A DNA stretch of 64,000 nucleotides from Acidobacteriota bacterium (GTDB lineage Bacteria; Acidobacteriota; Thermoanaerobaculia; Multivoradales; UBA5704). The notes beneath the pieces are model-generated. The model made no database searches and had not been told where the DNA came from. It saw nothing but the letters and a program-made list of their open reading frames with translations. Made by a program: the position numbers and the translations under genes. This document shows, in pieces, positions 22,993 to 34,220 of this stretch; within the stretch, counting starts at the first letter, position 1, and each line of letters begins with the position of its first letter. The stretch is taken from assembly GCA_040005235.1 (NCBI GenBank), contig JBDTZG010000016.1, positions 1 through 64,000 on the forward strand, in the 5' to 3' direction.

Positions 22993-25161
<2,169 letters not shown>

Positions 25162-25182
25162 GATCGTTTCGGGCGCTCTCGG

Positions 25183-26922
25183 TTAGAAAAGCGTCCCGGC
25201 CTCCATCAGGTAATGCTCGACGATCGGGCCGAGCGACAGCACGGGCAGGAAGGTGAGCGCGCCGACGATCAGGATCACGCCCAGCAGCAGGCCGACGAAC
25301 AGCGGCGTATGCACCGGAAACGTACCGGCCGAAGGGGGGACGATTTTCTTCGACGCAAGATTGCCCGCGATCGCCATCATCGGCACGATCATCAGGAACC
25401 TACCCGTCAGCATCGCCAGGCCGAGCGACAGGTTGTACCAGGGGGCGTTGACGCCGATGCCCGCGAACGCGGAGCCGTTGTTGCCGGTCGTAGAGGTGAA
25501 GGCGTAGACGATTTCGGAAAGGCCGTGCGGGCCGCCGTTGTTTAGCGTCGCGGTGCCGTAAGGGACGACGCTCGACCAGGCGGCGCCGCAGAGGATCGAG
25601 AGCGCGAACACGAGCACGTAGAGCATCGCCATCTTGACGTCTTTGGCTTCGATCTTCTTGCCCAGGTACTCGGGCGTCCGGCCGACCATCAGGCCGGCGA
25701 TGAAGACGGTGAGCACGACCATTACCAGCATGCCGTAGAGCCCGGCGCCGACGCCGCCGACGATGATCTCGCCGAGCATGATGTTGAGCAGCAGGATCAT
25801 CCCGCCGAGCGGCGTGTAGGAGTCGTGCATGGAGTTGACCGCGCCGCAGGAGGCGTCGGTGGTGGCGGTGGCGAACAGGGCGGAATTGAAGATGCCGAAG
25901 CGCACCTCCTTGCCTTCCATGTTGCCGCCGGCCTGCGCCGCCGCTCCTTCGATCTGCGCCTGGTCGACACCGTGCCGGGTAAAGTTCGGGTTGCCGCGCG
26001 CCTCGGCGATCCAGACGCCGCAGACGCCGATCAGGAACAGCGCCATCATCGCGGCGAGCACCGCCCAGCCGTGACGCGGGTTGCCGGTCATCCGGCCGAG
26101 CGTGTAGGTGAGCCCGGAGCCGATCGCGAAGATCGCGAGCATCGCGAGGAAGTTCGAAAGCGGCGTCGGGTTCTCGAACGGGTGGGACGAGTTGGCGTTC
26201 ATGAAGCCGCCGCCGTTCGTCCCGAGCTGCTTGATGATCTCCTGCGAGGCGACCGGGCCCTGCGCGAGGATCTGCTTCCCTGACCCTTCTACCAGCGCTA
26301 CCTGGGTGTAACCGGAGAAGTTCTGCACTACCCCTTGAGACACCAGCACCAGCGCCCCGACCACGCAGAGCGGCAGCAGCAGTTGAATGCACGCCCGCGT
26401 CAGATCGACCCAGAAGTTGCCGATCGTCTTCGCTTCGCGCCGGGCGATGCCGCGGATGAAGGCGACGGCGAGAGCGATGCCCGCGCCGGCCGAGACGAAG
26501 TTGTGGAACGCGAGCCCCGCCATCTGGGTGAGGTAGCTCATCGTCGATTCGCCGGAGTACCCCTGCCAGTTGGTGTTGGTGGTGAAGCTCGCAGCCGTGT
26601 TCCAGGCGAGCGCGGGGGGCACGCCGTGGAAGCCCTGCGGATTTAACGGTAGAACGCCCTGGAGCCGCTCGAGTGCGTAGAGCAGGAGCATGCCGGCAGC
26701 GCTCCAAACGATCATCGCGGCGGTGTAGGTCGTCCAGTGTTGTTCTTGCTCCGGATCGATCCGGCACAGCCGGTAGATCGCCCGTTCGAGCGGACCGAGA
26801 AACCGAGACGTCCACACCTTCTCGCCGGCAAAGAGCTTGACCATGTAGACGCCGAGCGGCTTGGTCAACGCCAGCAGCGCGAGGAGAAACAGGGCGAGCT
26901 GCAGCCATCCGTTCGCGGTCAT
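25183..26922 (-). CDS. kdpA: K+-transporting ATPase subunit A
   Basis: SFTTNTNWQ, LGTNGGG, MEGKEVRFG, GRTPEYLGKKI and NNGSAF. Confidence 0.98.
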   Translation of the reverse strand: MTANGWLQLALFLLALLALTKPLGVYMVKLFAGEKVWTSRFLGPLERAIYRLCRIDPEQEQHWTTYTAAMIVWSAAGMLLLYALERLQGVLPLNPQGFHGVPPALAWNTAASFTTNTNWQGYSGESTMSYLTQMAGLAFHNFVSAGAGIALAVAFIRGIARREAKTIGNFWVDLTRACIQLLLPLCVVGALVLVSQGVVQNFSGYTQVALVEGSGKQILAQGPVASQEIIKQLGTNGGGFMNANSSHPFENPTPLSNFLAMLAIFAIGSGLTYTLGRMTGNPRHGWAVLAAMMALFLIGVCGVWIAEARGNPNFTRHGVDQAQIEGAAAQAGGNMEGKEVRFGIFNSALFATATTDASCGAVNSMHDSYTPLGGMILLLNIMLGEIIVGGVGAGLYGMLVMVVLTVFIAGLMVGRTPEYLGKKIEAKDVKMAMLYVLVFALSILCGAAWSSVVPYGTATLNNGGPHGLSEIVYAFTSTTGNNGSAFAGIGVNAPWYNLSLGLAMLTGRFLMIVPMMAIAGNLASKKIVPPSAGTFPVHTPLFVGLLLGVILIVGALTFLPVLSLGPIVEHYLMEAGTLF

Positions 26923-27143: not shown

Positions 27144-29024
27144 TTACGCCGCCGAGGGGGCGACCGGTAGGCTGAACCAGAACGTGGTGCCGGCTCCTAC
27201 TTTCGATTGGACGTGGATCTCGCCGCCGTGGGCGTGGACGATCTCCTTGGCGATCGACAGGCCTAAGCCGGCGCCGCCCAGGTCTTCCGTTCCCGGCATT
27301 TGATAGAAGCGATCGAAAATCCTATCGGTCTGGCCGGCTGGGATGCCCGGCCCGGTGTCGGCGACCGAGAAGCGGACGTATTTCTTGTACTGCTCGGCGC
27401 GTACTGTCACCGAGCCGCCCGCGGGCGTATGGTGGAGCGCGTTGGACAACAGGTTCGACAGCACCAGCCGTGCGCGTGCCGGATCGGCTAGAACTTTGGG
27501 CGCCGCCGGGTCGATCTCGACTTTCAGCTCGATGCCGGCGTCCTCGAATTCGGGCCGGAAATCGTTCGTCCGCGCTTCGACGAAGTCGCGCGTGGCGACG
27601 GCATCGATGCGCAGCAATTGGCGGTCGGACTCAAGGCGGGAAAGCTCCAACAAACTCTCGACGATCTCGCGCAGCCGCTCCGCGTCGTCGCGGGCGACCA
27701 CCAGCAGCTCCGTCTGCTCCTTGTTCAGCTCGCCGAGCTTCTCGCCGAGCAGCACGTGGACGGCCATCTGGAGCGAGGTGAGGGGGGTCCGAAGCTCGTG
27801 CGAGACGGTCGAGAGCAGGCCGCTCTTCATCTCGTCGACGCGCCGCAGGTCGGTGACGTCGGAAAGAATCAGCGTGGTCCCTAAAAGCTCCCCTTCCGCG
27901 TCGCGGATCGCCACGGCGTGGGGCATGAAGAAATGCTCTTTGCCGTCTTTCCAGACCTGGATCGCCGACTCGAAGCCGCGCTCGGGCGGCGCGCCGAAGC
28001 GGCCGGCGAGATCGGCCGAATGGGCGGCGGAAGCGAGCAACGGCCGCAGCCACTGGCCATGGCGCTCGGGCACCGCCGCGCCGGGTGCCAAACCGAACTC
28101 GGAAATCGCGATCCGGTTCGCCAGCTCGATTCCCCCTTCGGGCGAAAGCAGCGCCACCGCGTCGGGCAGGCTGTCGATCGCCAGCTGCGAGGTTTTCTGG
28201 GCCCGCAGTAGCTTCGCCTGATCGGAGCGGCGCAGCTCGCGCAAGCGGCTCGCCATCGCGTTGAACGCTTCGGCGAGCTGGCCCAGCTCGTCGCGCGACG
28301 CCACCGGCACCACCAGGTCGAGATGGCCGCGCTCGATTTCGCGCGCCGATTCGGTGAGCCGGCTTAAGGGTCCGAGGATCGCCTGAGAAAGAAACGCCAC
28401 CAGGCCGATCGCGAGCGCCGCGCCGGCCGCGATCAACAGGATCATCCGGGCGCGCGCAGCGGCGGCGAGCGCCCGGGCACGGTCGTTGGCCTGGACCATG
28501 TTGGTCTGGTTGAGCTGTTGAATCTCTTCGGCCCCTCGCTTGATCTCTTGGAAACGCGGCAGCAGTTGGGCGAAATAGACCCGGCTGCGCGCCTCGGCGG
28601 GGCGGCTCTCGTCGAGCACCTGCGGCAGGGCCGCGGTATAGGTCAGAAAGAGGTCGCGCACCCTTTCGGCCCGCTCCTTCTCGCCGGGGATCGTCAGGTT
28701 GCCCAGCTCGGTCTGGAGCGCCTTGTCGAAACGTGGGCGCTGCACCTCGACGAGAGCCCGGCCGCGCTCGCCGTCGCCCGCGAGGGCGAACAGCGCGCCG
28801 CTGTCGATCCGTTCGAGCGCTTCTTTCATCTCCTGCGCCGCTATCACGCTCTTGTAGTTCTCGCGCAGGATGACGTCGATCGAGCCACCGAGCCGCTCGA
28901 GCATTGAGATGCTCTGCGCGCCGACCACGAACAGCAGCGCGAGTAGACCGGCAAATCCGAGCGCGAGCTTCGATCGCAAGCCGAAGCCGGAGCGGGGAGT
29001 GGAATCGGAAGCGGGCGCGTTCAT
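27144..29024 (-). CDS. Sensor histidine kinase (periplasmic helical sensor, HAMP, PAS, HisKA, HATPase), kdp-associated
   Basis: Two TM helices, HAMP RDELGQLAEAFNAM, SHELRTPLT, NLLSNA, DTGPGI and GAGLGL. Confidence 0.93.
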   Translation of the reverse strand: MNAPASDSTPRSGFGLRSKLALGFAGLLALLFVVGAQSISMLERLGGSIDVILRENYKSVIAAQEMKEALERIDSGALFALAGDGERGRALVEVQRPRFDKALQTELGNLTIPGEKERAERVRDLFLTYTAALPQVLDESRPAEARSRVYFAQLLPRFQEIKRGAEEIQQLNQTNMVQANDRARALAAAARARMILLIAAGAALAIGLVAFLSQAILGPLSRLTESAREIERGHLDLVVPVASRDELGQLAEAFNAMASRLRELRRSDQAKLLRAQKTSQLAIDSLPDAVALLSPEGGIELANRIAISEFGLAPGAAVPERHGQWLRPLLASAAHSADLAGRFGAPPERGFESAIQVWKDGKEHFFMPHAVAIRDAEGELLGTTLILSDVTDLRRVDEMKSGLLSTVSHELRTPLTSLQMAVHVLLGEKLGELNKEQTELLVVARDDAERLREIVESLLELSRLESDRQLLRIDAVATRDFVEARTNDFRPEFEDAGIELKVEIDPAAPKVLADPARARLVLSNLLSNALHHTPAGGSVTVRAEQYKKYVRFSVADTGPGIPAGQTDRIFDRFYQMPGTEDLGGAGLGLSIAKEIVHAHGGEIHVQSKVGAGTTFWFSLPVAPSAA

Positions 29025-29071
29025 CGGGAACCTCCTGGCTCGGTCGACAGGGCCGAGACACCTGAACCGAA

Positions 29072-29088
29072 TTGCAGGCCGGGTGCCA
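29072..29088 (-). promoter_or_regulatory. Sigma-54 (-24/-12) promoter for the kinase-kdp operon
   Basis: Minus strand TGGCACCCGGCCTGCAA, GG-N10-GC spacing, about 48 nt upstream of the kinase ATG. Confidence 0.85.
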
Positions 29089-29104
29089 CCGTCGGGCTAT
29101 AAGG

Positions 29105-29117
29105 TAAGTCTCTGATT
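29105..29117 (-). promoter_or_regulatory. IHF-binding consensus site
   Basis: AATCAGAGACTTA matches WATCARNNNNTTR; lies between the promoter and the UAS pair. Confidence 0.65.
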
Positions 29118-29165
29118 TCATGAGGATTGACGGTTTGGGTGATCGGCGAGGCCGGACTGGCGGTC

Positions 29166-29210
29166 TTGCGTTTCGCAACGGGCTGTCGATCCAGATCTTG
29201 CAGAGTGCAA
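29166..29210. promoter_or_regulatory. Tandem bEBP upstream activator sites
   Basis: TTGCGTTTCGCAA (29166) and TTGCAGAGTGCAA (29198), both TTGC-N5-GCAA, 32 bp apart. Confidence 0.7.
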
Positions 29211-29241
29211 TGGGTCGGGTCGAGTTTGGTACATTCGCCCG

Positions 29242-30606
29242 ATGCCGCTCGGAGACAGCCGTCCGCTCCTCGACATCCTGATCGTCGACGACGAGCCGAA
29301 CATCCGGCGGACGCTGTCGCTCCATCTCGAAGGGGTGGGCCACAGAGTGCGCACGGCGTCGAGCGTCGGGGAGGCGCTCGTCGAGATTCAGAAACGCCGC
29401 TTCGACCTCGCGCTGGTCGACCTCCGATTGGGGCTCGAATCCGGGCTCGACCTGATGCCGAAGCTCACCGCCGAGGATCCAGCGATCAAAATCCTCGCGA
29501 TCACCGCCTACGCCTCGGTCGAGACCGCGGTCGAGGCGATGAAACGGGGCGCCCGCGACTACCTGTCGAAGCCGTTCACCCCCGCGGAGCTCGATCTCGC
29601 GATCGCCAAGCTCGTCGAACTGTCGCGCCTGGAGCGAAAAGTAGAGGCGCTCGAAAGCGATCTCGCCGAAGCCGACCCGAATTTCGAGTTGGCGAGCGAG
29701 AGCCCGGCGATGCGCGCGCTGCTCGACCTCGCGCGCCGCGCGGCCGACGGCGACGCCCGGCTGTTGATCCGCGGCGAGAGCGGCACCGGCAAAGGGGTGC
29801 TCGCCCGCGCGATCCACGGCTGGAGCCCGCGCCGGGGCAAGCCGTTCGTCACCGTCTCGTGCCCTTCGTTGCCCGCCGAGCTGCTCGAAAGCGAACTATT
29901 CGGCCGCGCCAAAGGCGCGTTCACCGGCGCCACGAGCGACAGCGCCGGCCGGGTGGCGCTCGCGGAAGGGGGGACACTGCTGCTGGACGAGATCGGCGAC
30001 TTGCCGCTTACGCTTCAGCCGAAGCTGCTCCGCTTCGTCCAGGATCGCGAATACGAGCGAGTGGGCGACCCGGCCACCCGCCGGGCCGACGTGCGCATCC
30101 TCGCCGCCACCCACCAGGATCTCGAAGCGGCCGTCGGCGCCGGCCGGTTTCGCGAAGACCTGCTCTACCGGCTCGACGTGCTGACCCTGGAGATCCCGCC
30201 GCTGCGCGCCCGGCGTGAGGACGTCCTGCCGCTCGCCCGACGGTTGCTCGCCCTGTTCGGTCGCCAGTACGGAAGGCCCAAAAGCATGTTTACGCCCGCC
30301 GCCGAACGGGCGCTCGCCGAGCACCCCTGGCCGGGCAACGTCCGCGAGCTGAGGAGCGCGATCGAACGCGCCGCGATGCTCGCCGGAAGCACGGAGATCG
30401 GCCCGGAGCTGCTGCTGCTCAAAGGCGCGACGGCTCCGGCGCCGACTGCGGGTCCAAGCTTGGGTGATCTCGTCCCACTCGCCGAGATCGAGCGCGAGCA
30501 CGTCGAACGGGTAGTCGCCCGCGCCGGCTCGCTCAAGGAAGCGGCCGAGATTCTGGGGATCGATCCCGCGACGCTCTGGCGGCGCCGGAAGGTGGCGGGC
30601 GGGTAA
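29242..30606 (+). CDS. Sigma-54-dependent response regulator (REC-AAA+-Fis HTH)
   Basis: IVDDE, GESGTGK, ESELFG, GAFTGA, WPGNVREL and C-terminal HTH. Confidence 0.95.
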   Translation: MPLGDSRPLLDILIVDDEPNIRRTLSLHLEGVGHRVRTASSVGEALVEIQKRRFDLALVDLRLGLESGLDLMPKLTAEDPAIKILAITAYASVETAVEAMKRGARDYLSKPFTPAELDLAIAKLVELSRLERKVEALESDLAEADPNFELASESPAMRALLDLARRAADGDARLLIRGESGTGKGVLARAIHGWSPRRGKPFVTVSCPSLPAELLESELFGRAKGAFTGATSDSAGRVALAEGGTLLLDEIGDLPLTLQPKLLRFVQDREYERVGDPATRRADVRILAATHQDLEAAVGAGRFREDLLYRLDVLTLEIPPLRARREDVLPLARRLLALFGRQYGRPKSMFTPAAERALAEHPWPGNVRELRSAIERAAMLAGSTEIGPELLLLKGATAPAPTAGPSLGDLVPLAEIEREHVERVVARAGSLKEAAEILGIDPATLWRRRKVAGG

Positions 30607-30634
30607 GGGATCCAACCCGCTATGATCCCGGACC

Positions 30635-31273
30635 ATGCTCTCCCTCTACTTCCTCCGCCACGGCCAGACCCAGTTTTCGCGCGACGATAATTTCTGCGGC
30701 TCGGGACTCGATCCCGACCTCACGGCCGAGGGGCGAGCGATGGCCGCGGCGTTTGCCGGTGATTATGGCTCGATGCCGTGGGCCGGTGTGTTCGCTAGCC
30801 CGCTCCGCCGGACGGTCGAGACCGCCCGGGTGCTCACCGACTCCTGGAAGCTGGGTCTGGAGATCCGCGACGGCTTGAAAGAGATTGGCTATGGCGAATG
30901 GGAGGGGAAGACCCGGGCGGAGGTCGAACGCGACTTCCACGACGACTACATTCGCTGGGAGGCCGATCCGGCCTGGAACGCGCCGACCGGCGGCGAGCGG
31001 GGGACCGTGATCGCCCGCCGCGTGGGCGAAGTGATCGAGGAGATCAAAGAGCGCCACGCCCACGGACCGGTGCTCGTGGTCTCGCACAAGGCGACGATCC
31101 GGATCGCCCTCTGCGGCCTTCTCGGAATCGACGTCGGCCGCTTCCGCTACCGGCTCGCCTGCCCGGTCGGCAGCGTCTCGATCGTCGAGTTCGGATCGAA
31201 CGGGCCGCTGCTGCGCTCGCTCGCCGATCAGTCGCACCTTCCGGCAGAGCTGCGGGCGCTGCCGGGGACTTAA
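30635..31273 (+). CDS. Histidine phosphatase (phosphoglycerate mutase family)
   Basis: LRHGQT, SPL.R, EIGYGEWEG and VSH. Confidence 0.9.
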   Translation: MLSLYFLRHGQTQFSRDDNFCGSGLDPDLTAEGRAMAAAFAGDYGSMPWAGVFASPLRRTVETARVLTDSWKLGLEIRDGLKEIGYGEWEGKTRAEVERDFHDDYIRWEADPAWNAPTGGERGTVIARRVGEVIEEIKERHAHGPVLVVSHKATIRIALCGLLGIDVGRFRYRLACPVGSVSIVEFGSNGPLLRSLADQSHLPAELRALPGT

Positions 31274-31300
31274 AAACCAGCCTGCTAGACTCCGGCGTCT

Positions 31301-32635
31301 ATGACCGATCCGACGCCCCGCCTCGCCCTGATCGTCGACGACGAACCCGGCATTCTCACCACTCTCTCCGGCATCCTCGCCGACCGCGGCTACGGCACGC
31401 TCTGCGCCGCCACCGGCAACGAGGCGATCGACCTCTACCGCCAGCATCGGCCGGACGTCGTCTTTTTGGACATCTGGCTGCCCGACCGCGACGGGCTCGA
31501 AACCCTCCAGGCGTTGCGCGCGGACGATCCCGCCGCCGCGGTGGTCATGATGTCCGGCCATGGCACGACGGCGACGGCGGTCAAGGCGATTAAGATGGGC
31601 GCCTACGACTACCTCGAAAAGCCCCTCTCGCTACGCCGCGTGGTCGAAGCCGCCGAGGGGGCGATCGACCAGAGGCTCGCGCTGGGCTTGAAAGGCGGCC
31701 ACGGTGAAGGCGCCGACCCGGCGGTCGAAAACGGTGTTCCGTCGGCCGGGCTGGATCTCGAAAGCCAGATCGCGCCGCCGCCCCCGCTGTCGATCCTTGG
31801 CATCCGCGGCCAACGCCAGCGGACGATCCGCCATTCGACGGTGATCTACGGCCTGGGCCTTCACTCCGGGGCGCGCACCGGGATGGTGATTCAGCCGCTG
31901 CCGCCCGACAGCGGCATTCACTTCTACACCCTGCCGGGAGGGCAGCTGATCCCCGCGCACGTCTCCCAGGTGGCCGACACCGATTACGCGACGACCCTCG
32001 GCCGCGACGGCGACAGCGTCAAAACGGTCGAGCATTTCCTCTCCGCCCTCCACGCCGCGGGCATCACCAACCTCCTGATCAAGCTCCACGGCGAGATCCC
32101 CGTGCTCGACGGCTCGGCCGTCGAGTTCTGCCAACGACTCCGTGCGATCGGCGTCGAAGAGCAGGACGAGCCGCAAAAGGAGCTGGTGATCGATCGGGTT
32201 TACGAGGTGGGAAGCGGCGAGAAGAAATTGACCCTGGAGCCGTACGACGGCTTCTCGGTTTCCTACAAGCTGCGCTACCCGGCGCCGGTGGGGGAGCAGG
32301 AGCACGAGTTTACTCTCGCAAGCTTCGAAGGCTACGAGCGCGAGATCGCCCCGGCGCGCACGTTCGGCTTCATGAAGGATCTCCAGATGATGGCCGAGCT
32401 GGGCCTCGGTTCCGGCGGCCGGCTCGACAACTTCATTCTGGTGGGAGAGGACGACGTCCTCAACACCGAGCTGCGTTTCGAAAACGAGTTCGCCCGCCAC
32501 AAGATCCTCGACATCATCGGCGACCTCTTCCTGCTCGGCTACCCGATCCGCGGCAAGGTCACCGCGAGCTTGACAGGACACCGCGACAACATCGCCCTGC
32601 TCCGGCAGATTTGGGCGGCGGTGGGGGTGACGTAG
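31301..32635 (+). CDS. lpxC: Receiver domain fused to UDP-3-O-acyl-GlcNAc deacetylase LpxC
   Basis: REC: IVDDE, FLDIW, MSGHG, EKP. LpxC: QRTI..G.GLHSG, TVEHFLSAL, EIPVLDGSA, IAPARTFGF, NEFARHKILDIIGDL, GH. Confidence 0.93.
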   Translation: MTDPTPRLALIVDDEPGILTTLSGILADRGYGTLCAATGNEAIDLYRQHRPDVVFLDIWLPDRDGLETLQALRADDPAAAVVMMSGHGTTATAVKAIKMGAYDYLEKPLSLRRVVEAAEGAIDQRLALGLKGGHGEGADPAVENGVPSAGLDLESQIAPPPPLSILGIRGQRQRTIRHSTVIYGLGLHSGARTGMVIQPLPPDSGIHFYTLPGGQLIPAHVSQVADTDYATTLGRDGDSVKTVEHFLSALHAAGITNLLIKLHGEIPVLDGSAVEFCQRLRAIGVEEQDEPQKELVIDRVYEVGSGEKKLTLEPYDGFSVSYKLRYPAPVGEQEHEFTLASFEGYEREIAPARTFGFMKDLQMMAELGLGSGGRLDNFILVGEDDVLNTELRFENEFARHKILDIIGDLFLLGYPIRGKVTASLTGHRDNIALLRQIWAAVGVT

Positions 32636-32639
32636 GGAA

Positions 32640-34220
32640 TCACCCTCGCGGTGGTCGCGGCGGCGGAATCGGCCGGCCCGGCACGCGGCGGAAAACCACC
32701 ACGTCGCCGCCCCCATCGCTCTGCGGAAAGCGGGCGACCTCCCGGTAGGCACGCCGGAACCAAGGCTGGCTGACGATCGGACGCGTGCTGCGCCGTTCGG
32801 TGTGGAACAGCACCAGTGGCGTCGGATGCGCGAGAAACGCCCCGAGCAGGTCTTTCTTCGCGATGTAGGGGAGCGATCTGGTGGTGACCAGCCCCATTAA
32901 ATCCTCGACCGTGCGGTCGCTGGTGTAGCCGAGCACCCCGATTTCGCCAAACGCGATCGACTCGTCCGGCGCCGAATTTTGGCGAATCCAAAGCGCGGCT
33001 TGCCGGTATGCCTGTTGCCTGGGCAGCTCGGCGAACCCCCGCAGCCAGGAGAGATTCCACACGAGCGATCCGACCAGAGCCGCCAACACGACCAGCGTCG
33101 GGAAGCCCGCGAACAAGAAGCGCGCGCGCTTCCCAGCCTGCCGCGCCTGTTGCGCCCAGCGCAGCATCGAGAACAAAGCCGCCCCAGCGCCGAACAGAAT
33201 CGCCGCCGCAAACGGAAAGACGTACCAGATCGAGAACGGCACGCCGAGCAGCGGATAGGTCAGGACGTTCGCCGCACCGTAGCCGACGAGCAGCCGGCCG
33301 CACAGCCCCCACCGTTTGTAGACCTCCTGTAGCTGGACCAGGCCGAAAAAAAAGATCACGGTGCCGCAGTACCCGCAGAGCTGTTGCCAGCCCGCCAATC
33401 CCGCGCCCCAGAAGCTCTGGCCGACGAATCCGGAGCCGCCGGAGATCTCGGCGAGGTAGCGCTTCGACTCGAACGTCACCGGCAGAACCGTGCCGAACCA
33501 GGCATATGCGGCGAGCGCCCCCGCCAGGATCACCGTGGCGACGGTGATCGCCCAACGCCAGGGAAGGCGGCGCTCGGCCTGGATCAGCAGCAACCCCAGC
33601 ACGGCGAGCCCGAGCCCGGTATCCGGTCGCACCCAAACCGCGACGCCGCCGAGCAACCCGGAGAGAATGGGCCGCCTTTCGGCGAACCGGCCGGAAGCGA
33701 GCAAGAGGAACAGCGCGAGCGCGGTCTCCGACCCCTGGGCCTTCCAGACGAACGGCGAAGAAAGCAGGAGCATTCCGCCGAGCAGAATCTCCGGCCACCT
33801 GCCGCGATCCGGAGCGGAGCGGATCAGGCAGGCGACGATCCCGAGCAGCGCGAACGCGAACACAATCGTCGCCAGGATCTCGATCCGCGCGCCGGTCACG
33901 CAGTGCAGCCCCGCCAGAACCAGAGCGAGCCCCGGGTTCGACAGCCCGAACACCCGCTCGCCGAGGTTGAACACCAAGCTGTCGCCGTGCGCCAGGTGCC
34001 AGGCGTAGCGATAGGTGATGTAGAAGTCGTCGATCGCAATCCCGGCGGTCCGCACGGCGAACGCAATCGTGAACGCGAGGCAGGCGAACCCCAGCCCGAT
34101 GGAGAATCGGGAGCGCCAAGCGGCCGCGGAAATGGATTCCTTCGATTCGTCGAGGCTCGCCAAGCGGACTCTCTCCAAGAGAAGTCGCGAGCCTACCCTC
34201 TTAAGCTCCGCCGGTTCCAA
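32640..34220 (-). CDS. Polytopic membrane protein, GT-C glycosyltransferase-like
   Basis: DDFYITYRYA.HLA.G..LVFN.GERV.G.SNP, G.ET, RPD and GEIG.LGY....DL.GLV. Confidence 0.7.
   Translation of the reverse strand: MEPAELKRVGSRLLLERVRLASLDESKESISAAAWRSRFSIGLGFACLAFTIAFAVRTAGIAIDDFYITYRYAWHLAHGDSLVFNLGERVFGLSNPGLALVLAGLHCVTGARIEILATIVFAFALLGIVACLIRSAPDRGRWPEILLGGMLLLSSPFVWKAQGSETALALFLLLASGRFAERRPILSGLLGGVAVWVRPDTGLGLAVLGLLLIQAERRLPWRWAITVATVILAGALAAYAWFGTVLPVTFESKRYLAEISGGSGFVGQSFWGAGLAGWQQLCGYCGTVIFFFGLVQLQEVYKRWGLCGRLLVGYGAANVLTYPLLGVPFSIWYVFPFAAAILFGAGAALFSMLRWAQQARQAGKRARFLFAGFPTLVVLAALVGSLVWNLSWLRGFAELPRQQAYRQAALWIRQNSAPDESIAFGEIGVLGYTSDRTVEDLMGLVTTRSLPYIAKKDLLGAFLAHPTPLVLFHTERRSTRPIVSQPWFRRAYREVARFPQSDGGGDVVVFRRVPGRPIPPPRPPRG

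Follow-up and report, generated by a model that had tools for sequence, protein, structure and literature searches.

LpxC is the enzyme that commits the cell to the synthesis of the lipid A of the outer membrane, and CheB, PleD/WspR and RpfG are response regulators in which a receiver is flexibly linked to an enzyme that acts as its output. In a stretch of 64,000 nucleotides from a soil bacterium of the Acidobacteriota (GenBank assembly GCA_040005235.1, contig JBDTZG010000016.1, positions 1 to 64,000; hereafter the window), a gene at positions 31301..32635 encodes a receiver (REC) domain fused to LpxC. Response regulators with enzyme outputs are known; what is new is LpxC as the output. CheB-type regulators share with this protein the succession of receiver, flexible linker and enzyme, and may provide a working model for the freeing or activation of the enzyme by phosphorylation, although their enzyme family is unrelated.

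Two-component systems have been linked to lpxC through transcription. In Desulfovibrio vulgaris, one study (PMC3333781) gives lpxC as the single mapped target of the NtrC-type regulator DVU2934, with orthologues of the regulator in Acidobacterium capsulatum and, in Syntrophobacter fumaroxidans, an lpxC gene that adjoins the regulator operon. As described there, DVU2931/DVU2934 resembles the system considered here in being a two-component system dedicated to lpxC, and can be compared with the clusters of unfused lpxC, DUF4390, kinase and regulator genes that we observe in other Acidobacteriota. It differs in that its control is transcriptional, and the comparison is one of reported targets, not of orthology.

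The NtrY/NtrX system of Rhodobacter sphaeroides, Caulobacter crescentus and Brucella offers a further parallel. Two sources report that, in R. sphaeroides and Caulobacter, transcription of lpxC is under repression by NtrYX (PMC7240162, PMC12444477). Its loss in R. sphaeroides raises lpxC transcripts 8.8-fold and increases lipopolysaccharide (LPS) (PMC7240162), and a 2025 review of lipid A regulation presents NtrYX and ChvGI as transcriptional inputs (PMC12444477). The likeness to our locus lies in this reported control of lpxC transcripts and LPS amount (PMC7240162, PMC12444477), in the position of the fused REC within an NtrX-like clade, and in a kinase with the domain order NtrY_N-HAMP-PAS-HisKA-HATPase in the window's genome. 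In contrast, NtrX acts on DNA, whereas the fusion is without the AAA+ and helix-turn-helix (HTH) parts and has an enzyme as its output; in addition, the kinase and receiver genes are unlinked in this genome.

In the literature searched, whose scope left out most subscription journals, no description of a REC-LpxC fusion was found and only the transcriptional links surfaced. A term search of the 2025 review (PMC12444477) likewise returned no mention of receivers, response regulators or domain fusions, in line with the statement of an earlier reading of the window (the original prediction) that a fused receiver is foreign to the regulation of LpxC in model bacteria. The controls studied so far are proteolysis, partner proteins and transcription; if the mechanism proposed below is true, the fusion would represent a fourth mode, direct and phosphorylation-dependent.

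The fusion protein and its occurrence

The gene and the parts of its product are located as follows.

31301..32635, + strand: REC-LpxC fusion gene, 444 amino acids (aa), stop codon included in the coordinates (open reading frame, Pfam and NCBIfam)
31328..31654, + strand: receiver (REC) domain, residues 10-118 (Pfam PF00072)
31655..31816, + strand: linker, residues 119-172 (AlphaFold2 and conservation)
31817..32614, + strand: LpxC deacetylase domain, residues 173-438 (Pfam PF03331)

The fusion protein consists of an intact REC, a variable linker of about 50 residues and a complete LpxC; the original prediction had read this order of parts from the motifs, with a linker of some 45 residues. The reading frame starts with ATG, 5' of which just four more codons are open. 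The REC matches PF00072 (Response_reg) over residues 10-118 with an E-value of 1.3e-28 and 99.8 bits (cut-off 30.2), and contains the acidic pair D13/D14, the phospho-acceptor D57 (in FLDIW), S85 (in MSGHG), the switch residue Y104 and K107 (in EKP). The LpxC domain, residues 173-438, aligns to PF03331 nearly end to end (profile positions 1-267 of 268; E 1.4e-83, 281 bits, cut-off 27), and the protein scores 237.2 bits with the NCBIfam equivalog TIGR00325 lpxC (cut-off 187.25). Since both domains pass curated cut-offs and the architecture recurs in all 120 homologues listed, the fusion is beyond chance.

The residues expected of an LpxC active site are E244, H245, T354, F355, H400, K401, D404 (HKILD), D408 and H427. 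By analogy with the Pseudomonas aeruginosa and Escherichia coli enzymes, we take H245, H400 and D404 to be the zinc ligands and E244, H427, T354, K401 and D408 to be the catalytic set. The solved chains of P. aeruginosa LpxC align to the fusion (E 1.3e-52) with the VEH, RTFGF, HKILD..GD and GH motifs in register, and the full fold and catalytic residues align with the stand-alone structures from P. aeruginosa, Aquifex aeolicus and E. coli (E 1.3e-52 to 1e-46). Unlike these enzymes, that of the window has an N-terminal REC and a linker, and only six residues follow its LpxC domain. Deacetylase activity on UDP-3-O-acyl-GlcNAc is predicted for the LpxC part.

Conservation was assessed in 269 fused sequences, comprising 120 close sequences, 22 representatives of short or intermediate length and 127 long forms. 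The six receiver residues (D13, D14, D57, S/T85, Y/F104 and K107) are kept in 120/120 of the close set, in 19-22 of the 22 short or intermediate representatives and in 126-127 of the 127 long forms; the corresponding figures for the nine LpxC residues are 119-120, 21-22 and 127. Positions 85 and 104 vary only within type (S/T and Y/F) in the close and long sets, while position 104 is I or L in two of the 22 short or intermediate representatives. The phospho-acceptor residues, like the zinc ligands and catalytic residues of LpxC, vary little or not at all, and both halves of the protein are under constraint.

The linker behaves differently from the domains that it joins: in the close set, the mean frequency of the top residue is 0.86 in REC and 0.87 in LpxC versus 0.17 at mid-linker residues 133-148. 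Its first part prolongs helix alpha5 (to residue 133), residues 133-151 are unconserved, and the segment directly before LpxC is conserved; the spacing from EKP to QRT is 48-70 aa in 118 of the 120 homologues listed. An AlphaFold2 (AF2) model of the whole chain, computed from an alignment of 66 rows, has a mean predicted local distance difference test score (pLDDT) of 89.8 and a predicted template modelling score (pTM) of 0.86. In this model helix alpha5 is long (111-133), pLDDT falls below 50 at residues 133-151, and a confident helix (149-156) precedes LpxC. Residues 133-151 are probably disordered, as judged from the model, and the pTM of a two-domain chain suggests, as a hint, that REC packs on LpxC in a defined way.

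The window's genome (G000; 6.2 Mb in 140 contigs, rated 100% complete) is a draft from a metagenome-like source. A family search of the whole genome yielded the fusion gene as its sole LpxC match, settling in the affirmative the query raised with the original prediction of whether this is the only lpxC. The LpxA C-terminal domain, LpxB and LpxK have one match apiece, which indicates that the lipid A pathway is present and depends on the fusion gene. The zinc-ribbon family of LapB has no match in G000, a blank of little weight because the model matches 10 of 14 control genomes, Gram-positives included.

A search for the architecture across taxa, proposed with the original prediction, showed it to be widespread. 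Both Pfam families are found in all 120 homologues listed, whose records name only a 'UDP-3-O-acyl-GlcNAc deacetylase' and derive from Thermoanaerobaculia or Acidobacteriota metagenome-assembled genomes (MAGs). Among 41 related genomes (G000 counted), 33 have a full-length fused match, single-contig genomes among them, and in two more (G005, G020) the match is broken by contig ends. An unfused LpxC, about 41% identical, occurs in four (G016, G027, G031 and the fragmentary G017). In a sample of 401 Acidobacteriota genomes, LpxC is matched in 374 and the full-length fused form is present in 26, which belong to the window's order and class and to families f25, f28 and f55; the ten f55 genomes with the fused form show 43-47% identity. 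Three unpublished genomes (G063, G189 and G088) are among the 401, were used in tallies only, and all have LpxC-only matches. The fusion occurs in many uncultured soil and sediment lineages.

Two observations concern the remaining relatives. The LpxC family was not found in G022 (96% complete) or G036 (94% complete); both still hold the NtrY-like kinase described below, and an assembly gap or a true loss is possible. G011 carries two LpxC, one unfused (C95:23375-24172, inside an open frame of 555 aa) and one fused (C266:12444-13745).

A family of NtrX-type receivers joined to LpxC

By its sequence, the fused REC is a member of the NtrX-like receiver clade. The solved receivers closest to it are of the NtrC4, NtrX and NtrC1 types, and its best NCBIfam receiver match is NtrX, at 101 bits, far under the cut-off of 600 set for the whole protein. 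In a tree of 98 receivers, one branch, with a support of 97 in the Shimodaira–Hasegawa-like approximate likelihood ratio test (SH-aLRT), unites all 56 fused RECs, all 11 RECs whose regulators accompany an unfused lpxC, and the REC of a regulator on contig C118 of G000. The other 27 G000 RECs, including that of the sigma54-type regulator at 29242 in the window, and those of three neighbour regulators from other loci lie outside it. The 29242 regulator was rejected as the donor of the fused REC (38.6% identity, outside the NtrX-like clade).

A search of the wider family, run on 50%-identity representatives and followed by Pfam, revealed three architectures whose LpxC parts are close relatives: a short REC-LpxC (412-461 aa), an intermediate REC-HTH_8-LpxC (483-505 aa; P0134, P0142 and P0146, with a weak PF02954 match in P0134), and a long REC-Sigma54 AAA+-lid-LpxC (650-745 aa). 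The long forms match the NCBIfam NtrX model over residues 5-444 with 335 bits, under the cut-off of 600, and as read by eye their sequences have a Fis-type HTH immediately before LpxC; in the long form P0122, the GAFTGA motif is absent on the same reading. The best 120 clusters from a search with P0122 all contain the AAA+ and LpxC families and are mostly 720-745 aa long, with some fragments; their named sources are Deltaproteobacteria, Desulfobacterota or Thermodesulfobacteriota MAGs, and one full-length relative sits in a Nitrospirae MAG.

The fusion of the window shares with these longer proteins a common LpxC clade, a common REC clade and the same conserved residues. It differs in that the long forms keep the NtrX-like ATPase module and both long and intermediate forms keep the Fis-type HTH, whereas the window's protein has neither: sigma54-type AAA+ (PF00158, PF14532, PF25601) and Fis-type HTH (PF02954) have no Pfam match in it.

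The relationships among the enzymes were analyzed in an unrooted tree of 100 LpxC domains (quick maximum-likelihood search, LG+G4, SH-aLRT support only). One branch (support 100) has on one side 38 unfused LpxC (all 19 from Acidobacteriota, and 19 of the 20 unfused representatives) and on the other all 61 fused LpxC plus the 290-aa P0188. The window's LpxC lies with the fused sequences and is separate from the unfused LpxC of the same order, with which it shares 41% identity. P0188 appears to be an unfused LpxC within the fused clade, where it is sister to the fused P0157 (support 93); its two parts may have separated secondarily, or the gene call may be truncated. Within the fused clade, long forms surround short and intermediate ones: P0134 pairs with P0148 (support 100), and P0143 groups with P0123 and P0151 (support 99). 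Loss of the ATPase and DNA-binding parts hence happened repeatedly. No long member occurs in the window's own clade, which is made up of 21 short forms (support 89, and 98 for a group of 20); by analogy, we infer that it too descended from a long form.

From these comparisons, the window's protein appears to be a shortened representative of a family of NtrX-LpxC fusions that seems not to have been described. Such a family would be an uncommon case in which the conversion of a transcription factor into a regulator of an enzyme can be followed step by step, with the genes unlinked, the whole regulator fused, the ATPase missing, and finally only receiver and enzyme left.

Candidate kinases and proposed control of LpxC

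The unfused design is seen in G031, where lpxC is followed by genes for a DUF4390 protein, a 748-aa kinase (HAMP, PAS, HisKA, HATPase) and a 455-aa REC-AAA+ (GAFTGA)-HTH regulator, for which NtrX is the top NCBIfam model. In 11 of the 19 unfused Acidobacteriota loci, lpxC stands beside genes for a full-length NtrY-like kinase and a regulator of the NtrX type; several of these 11 come from close kin and are hence non-independent, and DUF4390 is detected in eight of them. At locus L012 (G016:C46, 8116 to 13025), about 5 kb lies between the NtrY-like kinase and the NtrX-like regulator, while the clusters elsewhere are tight. The fused loci examined from other genera, 23 in all, showed no full-length NtrY-like kinase within about 9 kb.

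The NtrY-like kinase is present in 41/41 relatives. A close match to the lpxC-linked regulator (at least 59% identity, E 1e-163 or better) is confined to G031, G016, G027 and the fusion-bearing G030. The first three have unfused lpxC alone, as does one further genome, the fragmentary G017. The distribution of the fusion is complementary to that of the NtrX-like regulator, in that fusion genomes keep the kinase and are mostly without the lpxC-linked regulator.

The genes of G000 that enter into the choice of a partner for the fused REC are listed here.

G000:C8:122044-124323: NtrY-like kinase, 760 aa, with NtrY_N, HAMP, PAS, HisKA and HATPase
G000:C118:32710-34038 (L059:6624-8126): orphan sigma54-type regulator with an NtrX-clade REC; follows a DegP-like protease gene, kinase not nearby
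27144..29024 of the window, - strand: histidine kinase, HAMP-PAS-HisKA-HATPase (Pfam), divergent from the sigma54-type regulator
29242..30606 of the window, + strand: sigma54-type response regulator, REC-AAA+ (GAFTGA)-HTH_8 (Pfam and translation), with a gap of 28 nucleotides (nt) to the phosphatase
30635..31273 of the window, + strand: histidine phosphatase, His_Phos_1 (Pfam), 27 nt upstream of the fusion

The C8 kinase is 50% identical to that of G031. A DUF4390 gene lies directly upstream and a convergent sugar-transferase gene downstream, and no regulator gene was found in its neighbourhood. The C118 regulator was considered as an orthologue of the lpxC-linked regulator and rejected: paralogues of its type, 48-52% identical to the lpxC-linked regulator, occur in all 41 genomes, and the genomes with the true orthologue hold the paralogue as well.

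To compare receivers, we scored 14 positions, shifted three residues and presumed from work on Spo0F to contact the kinase, against the consensus of the lpxC-linked regulators; the G000 receivers were found by tblastn. The fused REC matches at 12 of 14 positions and the other 28 G000 receivers at no more than five (C118 at five, the 29242 regulator at four), suggesting that, of the receivers in G000, the fused REC is the most probable target of the NtrY-like kinase. Among the remaining 23 fused RECs from Acidobacteriota, 8-12 positions match. In two near-identical loci of Deltaproteobacteria MAGs, an NtrY-like kinase gene stops 23 nt before a long fusion gene. Judged by these sequence features, the orphan C8 kinase is the likely partner of the fusion and a better candidate than the 27144 kinase, which the original prediction had singled out for phosphotransfer profiling. 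The latter is 29% identical to the NtrY-like kinase query, ranking fourth in the genome, and is probably the partner of the 29242 regulator.

Taken as a chain, these comparisons make it reasonably probable, in our estimate, that lipid A synthesis is under phospho-control through a trimmed NtrX-type REC on the sole LpxC, with an NtrY-like kinase upstream. In the proposed course of events, a whole NtrX-like regulator (REC-AAA+-HTH) would have been joined in frame to LpxC in an ancestor, and the window's lineage would then have dropped the ATPase and DNA-binding parts and retained the phospho-switch and the enzyme. The membrane kinase on C8, encoded with the periplasmic DUF4390 protein, would phosphorylate D57 of the fused REC, and the phosphorylated REC would alter the amount of cellular LpxC activity, possibly by freeing or blocking the enzyme (as the CheB receiver does with its esterase), by a change of oligomeric state or by a change of stability. 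Direct control of the protein would thereby replace an ancestral two-component control of lpxC transcription. Phosphotransfer, its kinase, and the direction and manner in which LpxC would respond belong to the inferred part of this scheme.

A more far-reaching version, which we put forward only tentatively, is that a former switch of the lpxC gene was rewired by fusion and trimming, such that the orphan NtrY-like kinase, with its partner DUF4390, monitors the state of the envelope and, by way of REC-LpxC, adjusts in a matter of seconds how fast lipid A is made. If true, this would be a feedback loop built from unrelated parts that does the job of LpxC proteolysis in E. coli. The fusion, a small and soluble-looking protein, also gives the poorly understood NtrY and DUF4390 sensor pair a testable output.

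Several points weigh against phospho-control by the C8 kinase and against the descent proposed for it. The C8 kinase and the fusion lie on different contigs and no conserved neighbour ties them, and in two of the four long-form loci examined there is no kinase within 6 kb. The C118 regulator could use the same kinase, though just 5/14 of its contact positions match, and the contact score is a heuristic that partly mirrors overall similarity. In G030 the fusion coexists with a close match to the NtrX-like regulator, and G011 carries an unfused LpxC in addition to a fused one, so that the two designs are not strictly exclusive. Both trees are quick searches with SH-aLRT support alone; as they are unrooted, the passage from long to short form is demonstrated where forms are nested (as with P0134/P0148) but is presumptive in the window's own clade. 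Related genomes are non-independent samples, and among the runs listed, none recorded as RNA held the stretch.

Instead of acting on catalysis, the REC could control the abundance of LpxC, with phosphorylation exposing the protein to a protease or hiding it, as a built-in switchable degradation tag in parallel with E. coli. The C-terminal tail of LpxC is the degron in E. coli; the window's LpxC stops six residues past the domain, where the P. aeruginosa chains (295-305 residues) extend past the match, and we read this as a missing tail. The 2025 review describes proteolysis as the usual control of LpxC in studied bacteria and betaproteobacterial LpxC as likewise without the tail (PMC12444477), and the predicted disordered stretch in the linker would suit such a tag. 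However, the sequence holds no pointer to a protease or adaptor, there is no protease gene among the conserved neighbours, and the high pTM suggests a fixed domain contact that fits allostery at least equally; we regard this explanation as unlikely. Less likely still is a branched pathway in which the 27144 kinase phosphorylates the sigma54-type regulator and the fused REC alike. Same-genus loci do hold the regulator, phosphatase and fusion in one same-strand row beside the kinase, and two loci of family f55 (L013, L029) also have a kinase and a sigma54-type regulator upstream of the fusion. Yet the remaining 21 fused loci from other genera lack this linkage, and the REC of the neighbour regulator lies outside the NtrX-like clade and matches at 4/14 contacts versus 12/14 for the fused REC; the difference in clade and in score points to different kinase specificities for the two receivers.

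That the REC is a relic or phosphate sink without effect on LpxC, in a fusion that persists because it is harmless, agrees with the unconserved mid-linker, but we hold it to be very improbable: the phospho-acceptor residues are kept in the 269 sequences over several phyla, the REC columns are as conserved as those of LpxC, and AAA+ and HTH were lost repeatedly while REC was retained in all 61 fused rows, P0188 being the sole row of the fused clade without it. An artefact of assembly or gene calling that joined a receiver gene to lpxC would be conceivable in a metagenome-like draft of 140 contigs, and its probability is close to nil. The gene is a single open frame without internal stop, 33/41 relatives have it at full length, and an independently assembled contig of 8 kb, derived from sediment metagenome data of a different study (run X3), covers 30600-32700 with 171 substitutions and 0 gaps. 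The assembly chimera named as a danger to the original prediction is accordingly not borne out. Two identical contigs of public runs from one study also cover the gene; these may be its source.

Surroundings of the fusion gene

Across 24 loci, no conserved neighbours of the fusion were found save frames that overlap the gene itself. The arrangement of kinase, sigma54-type regulator, phosphatase and fusion is confined to same-genus loci, as is the phosphatase beside the fusion (L003-L005, L007 and L008). With this restricted linkage, an adjacent regulator whose REC is outside the NtrX-like clade, and the better fit of the C8 kinase, the suggestion of the nearby kinase as partner of the fusion was not supported.

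One further element lies between the phosphatase and the fusion.

31283..31291, + strand: extended -10-like motif TGCTAGACT, 9 nt before the fusion ATG

The original prediction had taken this motif for the gene's own extended -10. The motif does stand at the position given and is kept in the three same-genus relatives that could be aligned: TG(C/G)TAGACT is found at the same distance in G003, G007 and G002, with variable flanking bases. The pattern TGNTANNNT, however, occurs in the window at chance level (11 versus 12.6 expected). Two of these eleven motifs, at 29227-29235 and 31283-31291 (both +), closely precede start codons, by 6 nt at the sigma54-type regulator and by 9 nt at the fusion, which hints at leaderless transcripts. 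In three remoter members of the genus the upstream region did not align, and by eye a GGAGG is seen 8-13 nt before the ATG instead. TGCTAGACT may be a promoter for a leaderless transcript. A sigma70 consensus scan found no promoter in 28900-32900, and the sigma54 pattern TGGCAC-N5-TTGC, with 2 mismatches allowed, has 42 occurrences in the window versus 50 expected, none well placed before the fusion.

On the far side of the 27144 kinase, a KdpA gene (PF03814, E 1e-239) and a KdpB-looking P-type ATPase (22993-26922, - strand) adjoin it; no KdpD-type kinase was seen in the stretch read. Downstream, a gene at 32640-34220 (- strand) is convergent on the fusion with a gap of 4 nt and encodes a multi-pass membrane protein of 526 aa without a Pfam match, which is kept in five of six same-genus loci (67-82% identity).

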